The notes under the pieces were generated by a model, which searched no databases, was not told where the DNA came from, and was given only the letters and a program-made list of their open reading frames with translations. DNA of 33,145 nucleotides from a virus (lineage: Duplodnaviria; Heunggongvirae; Uroviricota; Caudoviricetes): the IMG/VR virus record IMGVR_UViG_2534681702_000003, positions 1-33,145 of that record. One strand, written 5' to 3'. Below are positions 6,226 through 14,849 of this stretch, one piece after another (position 1 is the first letter of the stretch; each line of letters begins with the position of its first letter). The position numbers and the translations under genes were made by a program.

Positions 6226-6864
6226 TTAAATATCTTGTTGAATTTTAAAGCATACGCCCAATATGCAAGATAGATCATCCAGCATAATTGAAGGGTAGCG
6301 AGGATTCGTGGGGACTAAAAGAATATCCGGCCCTTCTATCTCCAGTTTACGAATGACAGGTGTTGTGGTCCCTTTGGGTAAGGCAAGGACAATATTTCCT
6401 GGTTGTACGGTTCGATCGGGATCAACAAAAACTGTTGAACCATTTGGGATGGAAACTCCCCCACCAGATGTTGACATACTGTCACTCTCTAGAACAACTG
6501 CAAAGGTATTGGCCGGGATTTCTCCGACAAGCTGCACACAAGAGGTTATTGAGGAATTTTTCATATAATCACTCCAGCTTGCTGCCTGCTGAAGTGATAG
6601 TAGCGGAACCGTTTTTATCGGCGGTAAAGATAGATCAAGCGAATCACCTGTATTTAACTCTCCTCCATTAAGAAGCCAATTTTCGTTTACTTTCAATATC
6701 TTTGCCAGTGAACTTATGTAACGCGAGGACGGCGCTCCTCCACCGTTCATCCATTGACTTACGGAGCCTTTTGATGCGCCAGTGGCATTGACAAGGTCTT
6801 TGCCTTTCAGGTTTAGCGCATGCATACGTTGGGTTATGCGTTCAGATATTGTTTGCTTGCTCAT
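6226..6864 (-). CDS. CI-like prophage repressor (N-terminal HTH, C-terminal S24 LexA-like peptidase)
   Basis: 212 aa; HTH LKGKDLVNATGASKGSVSQW; C-terminal ...AVVLESDSM... (GDSM-like catalytic Ser motif); divergent from cro-like gene. Confidence 0.88.
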   Translation of the reverse strand: MSKQTISERITQRMHALNLKGKDLVNATGASKGSVSQWMNGGGAPSSRYISSLAKILKVNENWLLNGGELNTGDSLDLSLPPIKTVPLLSLQQAASWSDYMKNSSITSCVQLVGEIPANTFAVVLESDSMSTSGGGVSIPNGSTVFVDPDRTVQPGNIVLALPKGTTTPVIRKLEIEGPDILLVPTNPRYPSIMLDDLSCILGVCFKIQQDI

Positions 6865-6955
6865 GTTTTGATTTTAAAACACAGATGGTTTTGTTTCTTG
6901 ACTTTCTTTGGTTTTGATTATTAAACTTTTGGCGTTCAGTTTTATGGAGCGACTC
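6865..6955. promoter_or_regulatory. Divergent promoter/operator region between cI and cro-like gene
   Basis: Two 16-bp sites GTTTTGATTTTAAAAC (6865-6880) and GTTTTGATTATTAAAC (6911-6926), imperfect palindromes, about 46 bp apart. Confidence 0.55.
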
Positions 6956-7186
6956 ATGAAAAAATCAGAAGTATTAGGCTATTTTGGCGGAGTTGTTAAA
7001 ACAGCCGCAGCTCTAGGAACGTCAAAAACCACAGTCAGCATGTGGGGGGAAGAGGTTCCGTGGAAATGGGCGTTGCTAATTCAGGCAGTCACTGCCGGGG
7101 CGCTCAAATATGAGTTACACATACCGACGGTTGTCATTCCCGGTTCTGATCATAATCCGCCTTCTAACCAAGGGGGGGATTCATGA
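6956..7186 (+). CDS. Cro-like HTH regulator (YdaS-like)
   Basis: 76 aa from ATG 6956 (GGAG RBS); first gene of rightward operon opposite cI. Confidence 0.65.
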   Translation: MKKSEVLGYFGGVVKTAAALGTSKTTVSMWGEEVPWKWALLIQAVTAGALKYELHIPTVVIPGSDHNPPSNQGGDS

Positions 7187-7608
7187 AAATCAAGCATGAA
7201 CACATCCGCATGGCGATGAATGCCTGGGCGCGTCCTGATGGCGAAAAAGTTCCAGCAGCTGGAATAACCCAGGCTTATTTTGAGTTGGGTATGACGTTCC
7301 CAGAACTGTATGACGACAGCCATCCGGAAGCCCTGGCTCGCAATACCCAGAAAATTTTCCGCTGGATAGAGAAAGACACCCCTGATGCAGTTGAAAAAAT
7401 TCAGGCGTTGTTACCAGCGATCGAAAAGGCAATGCCACCTTTGCTGGTGGCCAGAATGCGCAGCCACAGTTCAGCTTATTTTCGGGAGCTGGTGGAGACG
7501 CGGGAGCGACTGGTGAGAGACGCTGATGATTTTGTCGCAGTGGCAATCGCCGGTTTCAATCAGATGAACCGTGGTGGCCCGGCAGGAAATGCTGTGGCAG
7601 TGCATTGA
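7183..7608 (+). CDS. YdaT-like protein (proposed CII functional analogue)
   Basis: 141 aa starting MKIKHEHI..., as recalled for YdaT; start overlaps cro-like stop. Confidence 0.55.
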   Translation: MKIKHEHIRMAMNAWARPDGEKVPAAGITQAYFELGMTFPELYDDSHPEALARNTQKIFRWIEKDTPDAVEKIQALLPAIEKAMPPLLVARMRSHSSAYFRELVETRERLVRDADDFVAVAIAGFNQMNRGGPAGNAVAVH

Positions 7609-7679
7609 GTGATAATAGCCATATCGAATCACTTCCGGCAACTCGTGAGTAAAAAGATTCGGTATCAGAAGAGGTGAGT

Positions 7680-8750
7680 ATGGCTAACGCCTGGCTCAGA
7701 TTATGGCATGACATGCCAAATGACCCTAAGTGGCGAACAATTGCCAGGGTGTCAGGGCAGTCAATTGCAACAGTGATGGCAGTGTATATCCACCTCCTGG
7801 TGAGCGCGTCACGAAATGTCACGCGAGGTCACATTGATGTCACGACAGAAGATTTGGCAAGTGCGCTCGACGTGACAGAAGAGGTAATTGATTCAATTTT
7901 GCAGACGATGCAGGGGCGGGTACTTGATGGTGATTTAATCACTGGATGGGAAAAACGCCAGGTGCTTAAAGAGGACAACGGCAATATTTCGCAAACCGCA
8001 AAATCTCCTGCAGAGCGCAAGAGGGCGCAGCGAGAGAGGGAAAGAAAGCGGGAACAAAATGGCGATTGTCACGGCGCGTCACGAAATGTCACGCACATGT
8101 CACGACGAGTCACGACAGATAAAGATACAGATAAAGATACAGATCAAGAAGATCAAAACACTATGGTCCATGGCGTAAAAAACGCCACGAACCAGGCAGG
8201 GGATGTTCAGACCGTCAATCTTGGTCAGCCAGCAGGCACGACACCGGAAGCCGATTCAGCGTATGCGCTGAAAGCCGATTCGGGCGCTGTGCAGCAGGTG
8301 ATGACCGCAAGGCCGGAGCAATCACACCAACTGCAGCAGCCTGAAGCCGATTCCGCCATTCAGCGGGAAGCCGATCGGGTAGTCACGGAAAACACCGGGC
8401 AGCCTGTGAGACGAGTGGATTATCCGGATGTGTTCGAACAGGTCTGGCGGGAATACCCGTTGCGTGCTGGGGCAAACCCGAAGAAATCCGCTTTCAGTGC
8501 CTGGAAGGCCAGATTACGCGAGGGGGTGTCACCAGAGGCCATGCTGGATGGCGTGAGGCGTTACGCAAGATACCTTGCGGCTACCGGGAAAACGGGAACG
8601 GAATTTGTTCAGCGAGCGACGACGTTTTTTGGACCGGACCGGAATTTTGAAAACCCCTGGCTGCTCCCGGTAAGCGGCACGAACAACCAGCGTTGTGTGA
8701 ATCATATTTCTGAACCGGATACCGAAATTCCACCGGGCTTCAGGGGGTAA
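7680..8750 (+). CDS. Replication initiation protein (O-like)
   Basis: 356 aa; position after cro/cII analogue; two iteron clusters embedded in the coding sequence as in lambda O. Confidence 0.65.
   Translation: MANAWLRLWHDMPNDPKWRTIARVSGQSIATVMAVYIHLLVSASRNVTRGHIDVTTEDLASALDVTEEVIDSILQTMQGRVLDGDLITGWEKRQVLKEDNGNISQTAKSPAERKRAQRERERKREQNGDCHGASRNVTHMSRRVTTDKDTDKDTDQEDQNTMVHGVKNATNQAGDVQTVNLGQPAGTTPEADSAYALKADSGAVQQVMTARPEQSHQLQQPEADSAIQREADRVVTENTGQPVRRVDYPDVFEQVWREYPLRAGANPKKSAFSAWKARLREGVSPEAMLDGVRRYARYLAATGKTGTEFVQRATTFFGPDRNFENPWLLPVSGTNNQRCVNHISEPDTEIPPGFRG
7804..7847. repeat. Iteron cluster I (4 x GTCACG at about 10-bp spacing)
   Basis: GTCACG at 7808, 7818, 7828(GTCAC), 7839; shares 19-bp GCGTCACGAAATGTCACGC with cluster II. 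Confidence 0.7.
8066..8160. repeat. Iteron cluster II plus AT-rich tandem repeat (putative ori)
   Basis: GTCACG at 8068, 8078, 8088, 8099, 8109 (10-11 bp periodicity), then GATAAAGATACA x2 and GATC-containing AT-rich stretch. Confidence 0.7.
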
Positions 8751-8790
8751 GTGTTGATTTCTGGTCATGAGGTAATTTTCAGGAGGACTT

Positions 8791-9213
8791 GTGGCAAAAG
8801 TTTTTACACAAGAAGAGCGGGAAAAAATTAAAGGGCAGGTTGTTGAACTCGTACGCCAGAGTGGGCGCGAGACGTTACGACAACTGGAAACTAAAACTGG
8901 GGCAACAAGATATCTGATGAGCGTTCTGGCCAGAGAGCTGGTTGCCAGTGGCGATGTATACAACTCTGGTTACGGGTTATTCCCGTCTGAACAGGCGCGT
9001 AAGGACTGGCAAAATGCCCGTAAAAAGCTCTCAAGGGCAAAGCTGAAGAAACCATCTGCGGTTGATCCGGACCTTATCTGGTCATTACCTGACGGAGAAA
9101 TACGTCGCTACGACAGGCGTCAGAACATAATCTGTCGCGAGTGCCGGAAGAGTGAGGTTATGCAGCGAGTGCTGGCGTTTTATCAGGGTAATTTTCAGGA
9201 GGTGATGGCGTGA
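8791..9213 (+). CDS. Hypothetical protein (140 aa), replication-module position
   Basis: GTG start with AGGAGG RBS; no family recognised. Confidence 0.55.
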   Translation: MAKVFTQEEREKIKGQVVELVRQSGRETLRQLETKTGATRYLMSVLARELVASGDVYNSGYGLFPSEQARKDWQNARKKLSRAKLKKPSAVDPDLIWSLPDGEIRRYDRRQNIICRECRKSEVMQRVLAFYQGNFQEVMA

Positions 9214-9505
9214 GAGTGAGAGTCTATATCGCCGGTCCAATGACCGGGTATAAAAATTTCAACCGTGAGGCGTTTCACAATGCGGAAGAGGAACTGAAAC
9301 GGGAAGGGCATACCGTTTTAAATCCGGCTGTGCTTCCGGATGGGCTGACACAGCCGCACTACATGGATATTGCATGGCAATGATTCGTTGTGTGGATGCG
9401 ATTTACATGCTGAAAGGCTGGCAGCGGTCAGCAGGTGCTAAGGCAGAACTGGCGCTGGCGGAGAAACTGGGGCATGCAGTTATTTTCCAGGAGGAGGTAC
9501 AGTGA
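9210..9505 (+). pseudogene. DUF4406-like (nucleoside 2-deoxyribosyltransferase-like) gene split by a frameshift
   Basis: N-part VRVYIAGPMTGYKNF...HYMDIAWQ stops at 9381-9383; C-part MIRCVDAIYMLKGWQRSAGAKAELALAEKLG... continues in another frame from 9380. Confidence 0.5.
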
Positions 9506-9777
9506 ATATCGACGCAACAATGACGATTGGTACGGCCCTCAATACGGGGCTGGCGCTTCTTGGTTGGTGCTACATCATGTTCTGCTCATGGCGGTGGCTG
9601 TCACTGATGTTACTGAAAGAATGGAATAAACGCTGTAAACAGACGCAGCGGCAGAAGGCAATGAATGCGTTTTTTGAGACCTTCGATATTGACAGTATAG
9701 AACCAGGAGAGCCAGCTCGCGTGATTAGCAGAGGTGACGTTGTAATTCTTGTATACCGGAGTGAAGAGAAAGCATAA
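9502..9777 (+). CDS. Hypothetical small membrane protein (91 aa)
   Basis: GTG start after AGGAGGAGG; one predicted hydrophobic helix. Confidence 0.45.
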   Translation: MNIDATMTIGTALNTGLALLGWCYIMFCSWRWLSLMLLKEWNKRCKQTQRQKAMNAFFETFDIDSIEPGEPARVISRGDVVILVYRSEEKA

Positions 9778-9891
9778 TCCAAATCTGAATAATTAAATCC
9801 AGCACTGTAAATAAAATTTAATCCTTAACCGGAGGGATTTCTGCACCCTCAGAACATCAGGAGGCCGCCCGAAAGGGCGGTGGAGATAATA

Positions 9892-10416
9892 ATGGAAATA
9901 ACTAAAGAACGATTATTGGAAATAGCAAATCTTAGTGAAAGGGCATTAAGTGATGGGAGGATTATTTCTCCTGATGCTTATGAATCAGTTACAAGTATAG
10001 AAATAATAACGATGGCCAGGATGCTTCTTGGTTGCCTCAAAAAAGAATATAAAAAAAAGGTGGATAGCAATGCTAATATATATGATATTTTGGACAGTTG
10101 GGGGGCTTGGGCTGCAGCTGGAAATAGTTCTATCAACTGGCAGCAAGTGGCTGATAAATATAAAGATGTAGTACCTCATGGTAAGAAATTACGCCGTCAG
10201 TGTGGCAACGATGAAGGTCGTATGATTGATACCTGCATGTTGAAGCTTAAACAATATAGAATAGATGACTATGAGTTAATTATCGCTCATTTTGTTATAG
10301 GTATATCTTTGCGTACAATAGCACGAAGGTACAAATGTTCAGATGGAACAATAAGAAAGAATATACAACTTACAATGGGAGTATTGTTAGGATTGTCTTT
10401 TTATGTGCAATTATAG
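9892..10416 (+). CDS. Antitermination protein Q-like (phage 82/QuuD family) with about 60-aa N-terminal extension
   Basis: Motifs LDSWGAWAAAG, RRQCGNDEGRMIDTCMLKLK, CSDGTIRKNIQ align with recalled QuuD (WGAWAA, CCDDDAMIICGCMARLKK, CSDGYIGKRLQ); GGTGGAG RBS; GNRA hairpin CCGCCCGAAAGGGCGG at 9864-9879. Confidence 0.65.
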   Translation: MEITKERLLEIANLSERALSDGRIISPDAYESVTSIEIITMARMLLGCLKKEYKKKVDSNANIYDILDSWGAWAAAGNSSINWQQVADKYKDVVPHGKKLRRQCGNDEGRMIDTCMLKLKQYRIDDYELIIAHFVIGISLRTIARRYKCSDGTIRKNIQLTMGVLLGLSFYVQL

Positions 10417-10421
10417 ATATA

Positions 10422-10901
10422 TCACATGAGCCTTGTTATGTCCTTTAGACGCGACCAGGTAGTATAAAATTTTTTAAATGTAATAAGCAGGAAAAAAATT
10501 CCCACTTGGAGTAATAGTTGGGCATATGTGTGCTCGTCGGCATCTTTTACTAGTGGGAATTTAAACTTTAGTGTATCAGGGAAAAATAATAAAATGATAA
10601 AAATAATACAAACTGATAGTAACCATCCCATAGTGGAGTGCATTTCTTCGGTCAGTTTTTTCAAATAACCAGTTTTTCCTATATTTCTAATTAGCGTATT
10701 ATCTCTAGCTGAAGCAATCAAGGTAAGCGAACCTAAAACAAAGCCAAATAATATCCCAGAAAATGTAGAAACGGCCGAAGCGATTGGCTGAATTTGTGCA
10801 AAATTTAGCTTTGCAGAAAGAGGCCATGCGATGATACAAAAAACAACAGAGGCTAAATTATAACCATAACTGTACAAAGTTATCAATTTCCCCTTTTTCA
10901 T
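10422..10901 (-). CDS. Four-helix membrane protein (159 aa), RexB-like architecture
   Basis: Four hydrophobic segments (about aa 16-30, 40-64, 90-107, 126-143); GGAG RBS; 15 bp downstream of the 304-aa gene. Confidence 0.75.
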   Translation of the reverse strand: MKKGKLITLYSYGYNLASVVFCIIAWPLSAKLNFAQIQPIASAVSTFSGILFGFVLGSLTLIASARDNTLIRNIGKTGYLKKLTEEMHSTMGWLLSVCIIFIILLFFPDTLKFKFPLVKDADEHTYAQLLLQVGIFFLLITFKKFYTTWSRLKDITRLM

Positions 10902-10916
10902 ACCATCGCTCCAAAA

Positions 10917-11831
10917 TTAATCAACTCTTTGATTGGCTACTCCAAAGTATGCCTTCAATTCATCATCTTTACTATCTTTTGCAAGAGTTAAGGCGCTCCA
11001 AATGCTGCCAACTAATGGATACCTACCTCCAAGTTCAACATCTGTGTAGTAGACTAATTTGTCTGCTACAAGATCGATAGGATGCTGTACACCGGTCTCA
11101 ATGTCTTGGGTTTCTAGTTTAAGTTTTTCAACCTCAAAAGTCTCTAGTGTTTCTTTAAAGGCTCTTTTTAGTTGAGAACCTAGATAGCGAGATTCAGGAT
11201 CTTCAGAACGACTATCCCCACGTAATGTAAGATTTACTTTGGCAGAATTAGTACCATTTAGAGTGGCTATCAATGCATTGTTGAAGTTATGTTCAATATC
11301 CTCATATAGTTGCACATTCTTTGGCCGAGCGATACCGATTTCTAGAGTTTTGATTCGAACTTCATTACGCATCAACCACTTTAAACTACTGGTCTGAATG
11401 ATGGGATTAACAGTTGTATTTTGTGAACTGTTGGAAAGATATTTACTTAATAGCAACCAGCCATAACAGAGTCTGTTTCGTTGAATTATTAAAACTGAGT
11501 CTTGGGTATAAAAATGAAAATAAGCTTTTTCTAATAAGTTTTCATTGATTTCAAGTTTAATTTCTCTTTCTTCACCTCCGGCTACAGCAACATGAGGGAG
11601 ATTATTGGTTCTGTGTTTTCCTATAACTCCCCTGAAACCATAGTCGGTTCTTTCCATGAAGCGCATTTCAACTAGTTTATTTCCTATTTTACGTACAGTT
11701 TTGTCTCGGCCTTCGCTGTATGACTCAAAAATTTTTGAAAAAACAGCTTCAGGTGAATTAACTCCTGCATTTGTATCAGTGCTTATAGTGTGACATTGAT
11801 AAAAATCGAAGAAAAAGCGCTTGCTAGCCAT
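10917..11831 (-). CDS. Hypothetical soluble protein (304 aa), first gene of two-gene operon
   Basis: Uninterrupted low-GC ORF; no recognised domain; upstream AT-rich 270-bp promoter region. Confidence 0.75.
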   Translation of the reverse strand: MASKRFFFDFYQCHTISTDTNAGVNSPEAVFSKIFESYSEGRDKTVRKIGNKLVEMRFMERTDYGFRGVIGKHRTNNLPHVAVAGGEEREIKLEINENLLEKAYFHFYTQDSVLIIQRNRLCYGWLLLSKYLSNSSQNTTVNPIIQTSSLKWLMRNEVRIKTLEIGIARPKNVQLYEDIEHNFNNALIATLNGTNSAKVNLTLRGDSRSEDPESRYLGSQLKRAFKETLETFEVEKLKLETQDIETGVQHPIDLVADKLVYYTDVELGGRYPLVGSIWSALTLAKDSKDDELKAYFGVANQRVD

Positions 11832-13932: not shown

Positions 13933-14298
13933 ATGACTGAACGCATAGAATTTGTTTTGCCTTACCCGCCAACGGTGAACACTTACTGGCGACGTCGTGG
14001 CAGCACATATTTTGTATCAAAAGCCGGTGAGCGTTATCGCCGTGATGTGGCGCTTATTGTTCGCCAGCAGCGGCTGAAATTAAACCTGTCCGGAAGGCTG
14101 GCGATAAAGATTATTGCAGAGCCACCGGATAAACGTCGTCGTGACCTGGACAATATCCTGAAAGCACCACTGGATGCGCTGACGCATGCCGGACTTCTCA
14201 TAGACGACGAGCAGTTTGATGAAATCAATATTGTGCGCGGTCAGCGCGTTCCTGGGGGGCGGCTGGGCGTGAAGATTTACAAAATTGAGAGTGAGTGA
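13933..14298 (+). CDS. rusA: Holliday junction resolvase RusA
   Basis: 121 aa; LPYPPTVNTYWRRRG...RRRDLDNILKAPLDALTHAGLLIDDEQ matches recalled RusA pattern. Confidence 0.85.
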   Translation: MTERIEFVLPYPPTVNTYWRRRGSTYFVSKAGERYRRDVALIVRQQRLKLNLSGRLAIKIIAEPPDKRRRDLDNILKAPLDALTHAGLLIDDEQFDEINIVRGQRVPGGRLGVKIYKIESE

Positions 14299-14849
14299 TC
14301 GTAAATATGATATACCCGGAAATTACAGGCAAAAGCGGCGAGCATTTACGTCTAAAAACGCTGGAAGCCGTCTGGATCCAGGGGAAATTACGGATGTGGG
14401 GGCGTTGGTCGTATATAGGTGGTGGCAAACCAGGAAATATGTTCAATCAGTTGCTGGCATCCAAAAAACTGACAAAAACCGCAATCAATGAAGCCCTGCG
14501 TAGAATCAGGGAGTCAGGGATTGATAAACCAGAGCTGGAAGCATTCTTGCGAGAGATGATCGCTGGCAGACAGAAGAGCTGGTTGTCTCACTGTACTGAT
14601 GCAGAGGCGTTACGCATTGATGGGGTGATAAGTAAAGCGCTTGCACGTTATCCTGGATTGATTGATATCCTGCGGCAAAGGTACGAAGGGCGGGGGATGA
14701 GTAAACGCAAAATGGCTGAATTGTTGAATGAGGTGCACCCGGAATGGTGTTTTAGTACATGCGAAAAGCGAATTGCTAATTGGTTAGCTGTTGCTGAATA
14801 TGCGCTATACATCCCTATGCGAGAATCGTTTGCTCAAAAAATGTCTTGA
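14295..14849 (+). CDS. Putative late-gene antiterminator (Q-like)
   Basis: 184 aa directly after rusA and before a terminator, tRNAs and lysis genes; MWGRWSY motif and HTH-like GMSKRKMAELL; family not confirmed. Confidence 0.5.
   Translation: MIVNMIYPEITGKSGEHLRLKTLEAVWIQGKLRMWGRWSYIGGGKPGNMFNQLLASKKLTKTAINEALRRIRESGIDKPELEAFLREMIAGRQKSWLSHCTDAEALRIDGVISKALARYPGLIDILRQRYEGRGMSKRKMAELLNEVHPEWCFSTCEKRIANWLAVAEYALYIPMRESFAQKMS

Follow-up and report, generated by a model that had tools for sequence, protein, structure and literature searches.

Phased GTCACG repeats inside an initiator gene as the probable replication origin of a lambdoid Escherichia coli prophage

Where replication begins is the question raised by two clusters of short direct repeats within a single gene in a 33,145-nucleotide (nt) stretch of Caudoviricetes DNA (IMG/VR record IMGVR_UViG_2534681702_000003, positions 1 to 33,145; hereafter the window). 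An earlier note on this stretch, made from its letters alone, had placed an origin within a gene resembling lambda O. Comparative analysis supports the placement: positions 7806–8162 are very likely the replication origin of a lambdoid (Rac-like) E. coli prophage and lie inside its own initiator gene (7680–8750). The repeats form two phased arrays that are constrained at the DNA level and co-vary with the initiator subfamily, and a conserved tract of low duplex stability adjoins them. The proposal of repeats plus an unwinding tract in an initiator gene is borne out by frozen synonymous sites, a family-wide layout, an invariant junction between repeats and tract, a module breakpoint at that junction, and helicase or loader genes that neighbor the initiator in relatives. 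No description of the origin of this family was found in the open-access literature.

The two arrays are separated by 260 base pairs (bp). Direct reading, a repeat finder of the kind the earlier note had suggested, and a pattern search agree on array 1, whose units start at 7808, 7818, 7828 and 7839, at intervals of 10, 10 and 11 bp. Four copies of GTCACG had been claimed for 7808–7845; four GTCAC units are indeed present, but only three of them are exact, and the unit at 7828 reads GTCACA. Array 2 does consist of five exact GTCACG copies between 8068 and 8114, as described, with starts at 8068, 8078, 8088, 8099 and 8109 and intervals of 10, 10, 11 and 10 bp, and the 10–11 bp spacing noted previously thus holds in both arrays. 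The 19-bp block GCGTCACGAAATGTCACGC reported to be common to the two clusters is found at 7806–7824 and 8076–8094. A further unit, inverted and reading CGTGAC on the plus strand, lies 27 bp past array 1 and most homologues of the GTCACG class have it at the matching place in the gene (nt 193). The window contains 17 copies of GTCACG versus 13.6 expected, and nine of these fall within the ~310 bp of 7808–8114, where ~0.1 would be expected; no other cluster of the hexamer, and no other repeat-associated A/T tract comparable to that of array 2, was found in the 33 kb. DnaA boxes are absent from 7600–8600 and occur at chance level window-wide, so a DnaA-dependent design is not indicated for the region. 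An Rfam scan of 7000–9300 at E ≤ 1 returned a single chance-level match and no known RNA element.

What follows array 2 is as distinctive as the array itself. Immediately downstream, ACAGATAAAGAT occurs twice in tandem (8115–8138) and is succeeded by ACAGATCAAGA / ACAGATCAAGAAGATCAAAAC, with GATC sites at 8142 and 8151, in agreement with the earlier account of a duplicated tandem repeat leading into a GATC-containing AT-rich stretch. The 40-mer at 8119–8158 is 75% A+T and 75% purine on the plus strand; no duplex in 7000–9300 is less stable, and window-wide it ranks at the 99.4th percentile. Array 1 has no adjoining A/T-rich tract. The tract at 8115–8162 is probably the DNA-unwinding element. 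The GATC sites were considered as a defining feature of the origin and dropped, both being situated beyond the homology breakpoint described below and missing from the related allele. Across the window, GATC is under-represented (62 sites versus 115.6 ± 11.6 in shuffled sequences), and an N6/N4 DNA methylase is encoded at 15429–16478.

Directly after the tract stands an imperfect palindrome (8164–8194) with 13-nt arms and a 5-nt loop, for which DNA folding gives a free energy (dG) of −8.7 and a z of −2.8. The same palindrome is present in the initiator gene of Shiga toxin (Stx) phage 75/02 (L001 ~2911–2941), where both members of the innermost pair are altered, and the window copy has a terminator-like score on the minus strand. 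Hairpins after the A/T tract are in slight excess across the family, with a mean best stem of 7.1 versus 6.6 in controls. The palindrome is at most a possible part of the origin.

Are the repeats maintained as DNA or as protein? The earlier note had read them in frame as NVTRGHIDVTT and NVTHMSRRVTT, and these peptides do correspond to amino acids (aa) 46–56 and 136–146 of the open reading frame at 7680–8750. Sequence comparison indicates that the repeats are selected at the DNA level, because of the frames in which they are read, the differences between alleles, and their frozen synonymous sites. All three reading frames are used by the hexamers of array 2, which accordingly encode CH, SR or VT. 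Among 18 homologues of the GTCACG class, from hosts with 34–69% GC, third positions inside the array 1 cores have a mean entropy of 0.11 bit, and six of eight are invariant; third positions of other codons for invariant amino acids have 1.35 bit, close to saturation, and none of 32 is invariant (Fisher p = 7e-6). Relative to an 84%-identical E. coli allele (L002), every core is unchanged, whereas the spacers have diverged together with the residues they specify, and array 1 of that allele is longer by exactly two units (21 nt). Unit number in array 1 varies among close alleles, from four in the window to six in E. coli JNE131328 and E. albertii, and the six-unit form (L002 3174–3233; L005 gene nt 129–186) adds seven residues to a loop of the N-domain. 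In array 2, cores are invariant and spacers variable across 20 taxa.

Comparisons across the family provide evidence that the arrangement is general. At least 882 proteins belong to the N-domain family, which reaches Pseudomonas, Bordetella, Aeromonas and Acidobacteria; 57 genomic loci were obtained from gamma-, beta- and alpha-proteobacteria and Acidobacteria. Shared hexamers were counted in two zones of the gene (nt 110–240 and 320–520), and other placements of this two-zone geometry along the loci served as control. Of 53 loci, 44 have one hexamer present two or more times in each zone, versus 24 of 1095 control placements (2%); with a minimum of three copies per zone the figures are 29 of 53 loci and none of the 1095 controls. 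The spacing of the hexamers across loci is nearly always 10–11 nt. Their sequence falls into four subfamily iteron classes, GTCACG, GTAACG, CGAACG(C) and GTGACG(C). All 20 aligned genes of the GTCACG class carry AGATAAAGAT 2–3 nt past the last repeat and then more A-rich hexamer repeats, and a GATAAA-type tract is also present in other iteron classes. Thus, the layout is kept while the hexamer changes with the initiator, which is the pattern expected for an initiator and its own sites.

The family is rare in a plasmid collection, with 11 records that are mostly large plasmids or mislabelled chromosomes, and so provides no evidence for use as a plasmid replicon. RefSeq often names the gene "hypothetical protein", and NCBI calls close homologues "phage replisome organizer". 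Two members from Serratia/Pantoea, L046 (2820–3050) and L056 (2820–3000), have the array 2 region replaced by a MUG113/T5orf172 (GIY-YIG-like) segment, matched below threshold (E 0.0036) and surrounded by ACTACG/GTAGTA repeats; the segment possibly represents a nuclease domain that has been inserted where the origin would be.

The mosaic structure of these genes locates a boundary at the same place. Homology of the window gene to other E. coli initiator genes breaks at 8143–8155, within the A/T tract, so that the N-domain and the repeats travel as one module. The N-terminal half with its repeats is also joined to a C-terminal half containing a DnaT domain, followed by a P gene (L002). The C-terminal half of the window gene, in turn, is also found joined to N-domains of unrelated type; one such gene, that of Stx phage 75/02, has a DnaC-like gene after it. 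As to which part of the N-terminal module recognizes the repeats, similarity of the winged-helix core is roughly equal within and between iteron classes, whereas the basic helix after the core differs by class, reading AERKRxQRERE in the GTCACG class, RV..[YF]RE in the GTAACG class, RAKxWRE in the CGAACGC class and RTRAYRERRR in the GTGACGC class. From this difference we infer that the helix at aa 107–126 is a candidate reader of the repeats.

What kind of initiator is encoded? PHROG 3729, "replication initiation protein", matches the window protein at E 1.5e-255, and the ATG at 7680 is consistent with the conserved N-terminus MAN.WLRLWHDMP shared by the homologues. The whole protein has no Pfam match at E ≤ 0.01, including none to Phage_rep_O (lambda O), and this last profile matches neither half of the protein even at E ≤ 1. 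The N-domain aligns end to end, but weakly, with the profiles PF09681 (Phage_rep_org_N; E 0.012, 16.0 bits against a cut-off of 23.3, profile positions 1–119 of 121) and TIGR01714 (E 0.009, 16.2 bits against a cut-off of 49.8). The term "O-like" in the earlier note is therefore apt for the position and role of the gene and does not extend to its sequence, given the missing Phage_rep_O match and the weak replisome-organizer match. The low-complexity part of TIGR01714 proteins is described as reflecting direct repeats in the DNA that are able to act as a phage origin.

An AlphaFold model predicts a confident winged-helix N-domain (aa 1–97, 7680–7970), a low-confidence basic helix (aa 110–126; assigned here to about aa 107–126), a disordered linker (aa 130–243) and a confident helical C-domain (aa 244–332, 8409–8675). 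In this model array 1 encodes the end of helix 3 and a surface loop (aa 44–56), and array 2 and the A/T tract are encoded in the disordered linker, the peptide of which is of low complexity (DKDTDKDTD). A DNA element would be tolerated inside the gene because the arrays encode a surface loop and a disordered linker.

The genes that follow the initiator in relatives support a role in replication initiation. Ten distant family loci were sampled and nine next genes scanned; these are P-like, DnaC/IstB-like, DnaB-type helicase, primase-helicase, weakly G39P-like or DUF6475 genes, and in two of the loci the next gene has no Pfam match. A P-like gene follows the initiator in the relatives L002 and L006. 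No helicase or loader gene follows it in phage Tritos (L061 7071–7600) or in the listed E. coli matches.

The window protein itself carries a possible link to host replication factors. Its C-terminal tail is identical to that of MG1655 DnaT at 15 of 25 residues (BLASTP, E 8e-8) and is matched by positions 156–179 of the NCBIfam DnaT profile, and the same PD..IP.GFRG tail ends many family members that have otherwise unrelated C-domains. The single-stranded DNA-binding domain of DnaT, PF17948, has no match in the window protein and is present in the L002 allele. A profile search of solved structures found DnaT, chiefly through the C-domains of other members and the shared tail. Neither the preprimosome paper nor the review states a function for the DnaT tail. 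The resemblance suggests direct use of host factors and makes the tail a candidate motif to which host replication proteins could dock.

A plausible sequence of events can be drawn by analogy with ori-lambda (PMC7466680) and SPP1 oriL (PMC6316719), in which the initiator would bind the repeats, melt the adjoining tract and recruit the helicase. The early rightward operon, comprising the cro-like, YdaT/cII-like and initiator genes, would be transcribed from a cro-side promoter through the site to produce the initiator. Initiator monomers would then bind the GTCACG units, and because the units recur every 10–11 bp the bound proteins would lie on one face of the helix. An oligomer would be built on the five units of array 2, probably together with the four units and the one inverted unit of array 1, 260 bp upstream. 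This complex would melt the adjoining A-rich tract, AGATAAAGATACAGATAAAGATACAGATCAAGAAGATCAAAA, after which the C-domain and the DnaT-like tail would bring in the host helicase machinery, as this phage does not encode a loader itself.

Several observations weigh against assigning an origin to this site. At 75% A+T over 40 bp, the tract is modestly A/T-rich, nine of the 53 family loci are without a shared repeat in both zones, and no helicase or loader gene follows the initiator in the window (8750–9900). The match of the N-domain to the replisome-organizer family falls below thresholds, and a Foldseek search against the PDB yields just generic winged-helix matches (E > 0.6). No paper showing binding, unwinding or origin activity for the family was found in the open-access literature. 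Finally, array 1 could be regulatory and not part of the origin. An extended form of this last point holds that the arrays bind the initiator but mainly for control, through autoregulation, a transcription roadblock or "handcuffing", with unwinding taking place elsewhere or array 2 alone acting as the origin. Iterons of plasmids serve initiation and negative control alike, and the spacing of two arrays 260 bp apart, the additional inverted unit and the missing A/T-rich tract at array 1 would all suit such a role. It is nevertheless improbable, as the conserved low-stability tract abuts array 2 in every aligned gene of the GTCACG class, the window offers no alternative cluster of the hexamer or repeat-linked A/T tract, and the module junction falls in that tract, as at lambdoid origins; moreover, a control role is compatible with origin function.

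The chances are slimmer still that the repeats are bound by another protein, from the host or from a neighboring phage gene such as those for the YdaT/cII-like and DUF977 proteins. The winged-helix core shows as much similarity between classes as within them, so the reader within the initiator is identified at most tentatively; yet the repeat class tracks the initiator subfamily across alpha-, beta- and gamma-proteobacteria and Acidobacteria despite differing neighbors, the repeats always move with the N-domain across mosaic junctions, the basic helix beside that domain co-varies with repeat class, and the region has no DnaA boxes. Least probable of all, to the point of being very hard to sustain, is an account in which the repeats have no function as DNA and are a by-product of slippage or of protein-level selection on a repetitive peptide. 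Although the protein alignment shows no variation in the motifs NVT, RGH, DVT, SR and VT and the linker is of low complexity, reading in three frames turns the same hexamer into different peptides, the synonymous positions of the cores are frozen next to saturated neighbors across the full range of host GC, and the spacer bases vary freely together with the amino acids they encode.

The preferred reading, an origin within the initiator gene, invites comparison with origins already known to lie in genes, as ori-lambda does in gene O (PMC7466680) and SPP1 oriL in gene 38 (PMC6316719). The earlier note described a lambda ori architecture with a different iteron; the in-gene repeats followed by an A/T-rich tract fit this description, but O homology and a P gene are missing, the units are short and asymmetric, and there is an extra array. 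As in lambda, the putative origin is situated in the initiator gene between a DNA-binding N-domain and a helicase-recruiting C-domain (predicted roles in the window protein), direct repeats for the initiator (whose binding is predicted here) precede an A/T-rich tract, within the rightward early operon the gene follows counterparts of cro and cII, and N- and C-modules recombine at the origin. Repeat number also varies in both systems, four versus six in lambda and Stx phages (PMC7466680) and four versus six in array 1 here. Unlike lambda, the window has a second array 260 bp upstream, within the part of the gene that encodes the folded domain, and a DUF977/Ren-like gene in place of P; its protein has no detectable sequence relation to O. 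Lambda iterons are ~19 bp long with dyad symmetry, whereas the units here are 10–11 bp long with an asymmetric core of 6–7 bp.

Gene 38 of SPP1, encoding the replisome organizer gp38, is similar in that direct repeats and an A/T-rich unwinding element lie in the gene of the origin-binding protein. However, SPP1 has a second origin elsewhere in its genome and its own loader and helicase (gp39 and gp40), whereas the window has no second such array elsewhere and no loader or helicase gene following. Plasmid iteron origins of the RepA, pi and TrfA type likewise consist of phased direct repeats beside an A/T-rich unwinding element, and their repeats are bound by a replicon-specific initiator. Unlike these, the window site has no DnaA boxes, its protein has no fold match to plasmid Rep proteins, its units are much shorter, and the origin would be internal to the gene instead of adjacent.

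Two further initiator genes, ydaU of Rac (oriJ region) and that of Stx phage 75/02, are found at this same place in the genome, following ydaS/ydaT-like genes. The first (L003 2760–3080) contains two in-gene clusters of its own repeat, ATGTTCAA, and then a low-complexity tract; the second (L001 2579–2890) contains AAGGGGCTTC twice and its inverted copy twice, in two clusters, and then (AACAGG)n, and has its C-terminal module and palindrome in common with the window gene. Both differ from the window in having unrelated N-domains (DUF1376 in YdaU), other repeats and a DnaC-like gene next. A sequence-level definition of oriJ was not found in the accessible literature. The recurrence of a two-cluster layout with unrelated N-domains means that a bipartite design may be common among Rac-like replication modules.

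A more ambitious synthesis would make this a distinct and widespread bipartite origin class, with two phased arrays ~25 helical turns apart and a looped or wrapped initiator filament. Its specificity would have switched several times (GTCACG, GTAACG, CGAACGC, GTGACGC) through one basic helix, each switch rewriting the initiator loop encoded by array 1, and the E. coli version would be loader-free, its DnaT-like tail tapping the host replication-restart machinery to load DnaB. Taken jointly, these claims are speculative and rather unlikely to hold in full.

The features of the locus and the surrounding genes, which make up a lambdoid early region, are collected in Table 1. The DNA here is 99% identical to Escherichia phage Tritos, and 1647 of 5426 complete E. 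coli genomes carry the full-length initiator gene.

Table 1. Coordinates of the proposed origin, the initiator gene and neighboring genes in the window
Feature	Position	Strand	Remarks
Replication initiator gene, 356 aa	7680..8750	+	Open reading frame; PHROG 3729
Iteron array 1, four GTCAC(G/A) units	7806..7845	+	Encodes aa 44–56 (end of helix 3 and loop)
Inverted iteron copy	7871..7876	-	Pattern search
Basic helix AKSPAERKRAQRERERKRE, aa 107–126	7998..8057	+	Candidate iteron reader
Iteron array 2, five GTCACG units, frames 1, 2, 0, 2, 0	8066..8114	+	In disordered linker
A-rich, A/T-rich tract (ACAGATAAAGAT twice, ACAGATCAAGAAGATCAAAAC); junction of N- and C-modules at ~8143–8155	8115..8162	+	Includes the least stable 40-mer of 7000–9300
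Imperfect palindrome TGGTCCATGGCGT-AAAAA-ACGCCACGAACCA	8164..8194		Directly after A/T tract
C-terminal tail SGTNNQRCVNHISEPDTEIPPGFRG, last 25 residues	8673..8747	+	Near copy of host DnaT tail
cI-like repressor	6226–6864	-	
P22-Cro-like	6908–7186	+	
YdaT/cII-like	7183–7608	+	
DUF977 (Ren-like)	8791–9213	+	Next gene after initiator
Q antiterminator	9880–10416	+	

Downstream of the early genes, a DUF4406 gene is split into two overlapping open reading frames, 9210–9383 (profile positions 2–53) and 9374–9505 (profile positions 54–91). The arrangement suggests a frameshift, and the gene is intact in L002. Two Q-type antiterminator genes are present ~4 kb apart (9880–10416 and 14295–14849). Between them is a minus-strand pair (10422–11831) consisting of a 159-aa hydrophobic protein with no Pfam match and a DUF6731 protein. 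The arrangement could reflect insertion of a cargo or defence module, or else mosaicism in the late-control region.

The layout proposed here is already known from lambda and SPP1, and the general picture of phage replication is unchanged; the window places this layout in a widespread family with no origin described in the literature searched. A known origin and its recognition unit would provide a way to annotate origins in many prophages. The locus also offers candidate orthogonal replicons for engineering and a concrete hypothesis for how a phage that carries no loader may recruit the host helicase. The four specificity classes represent a natural set in which to follow the co-evolution of an initiator and its site where that site is also coding sequence.

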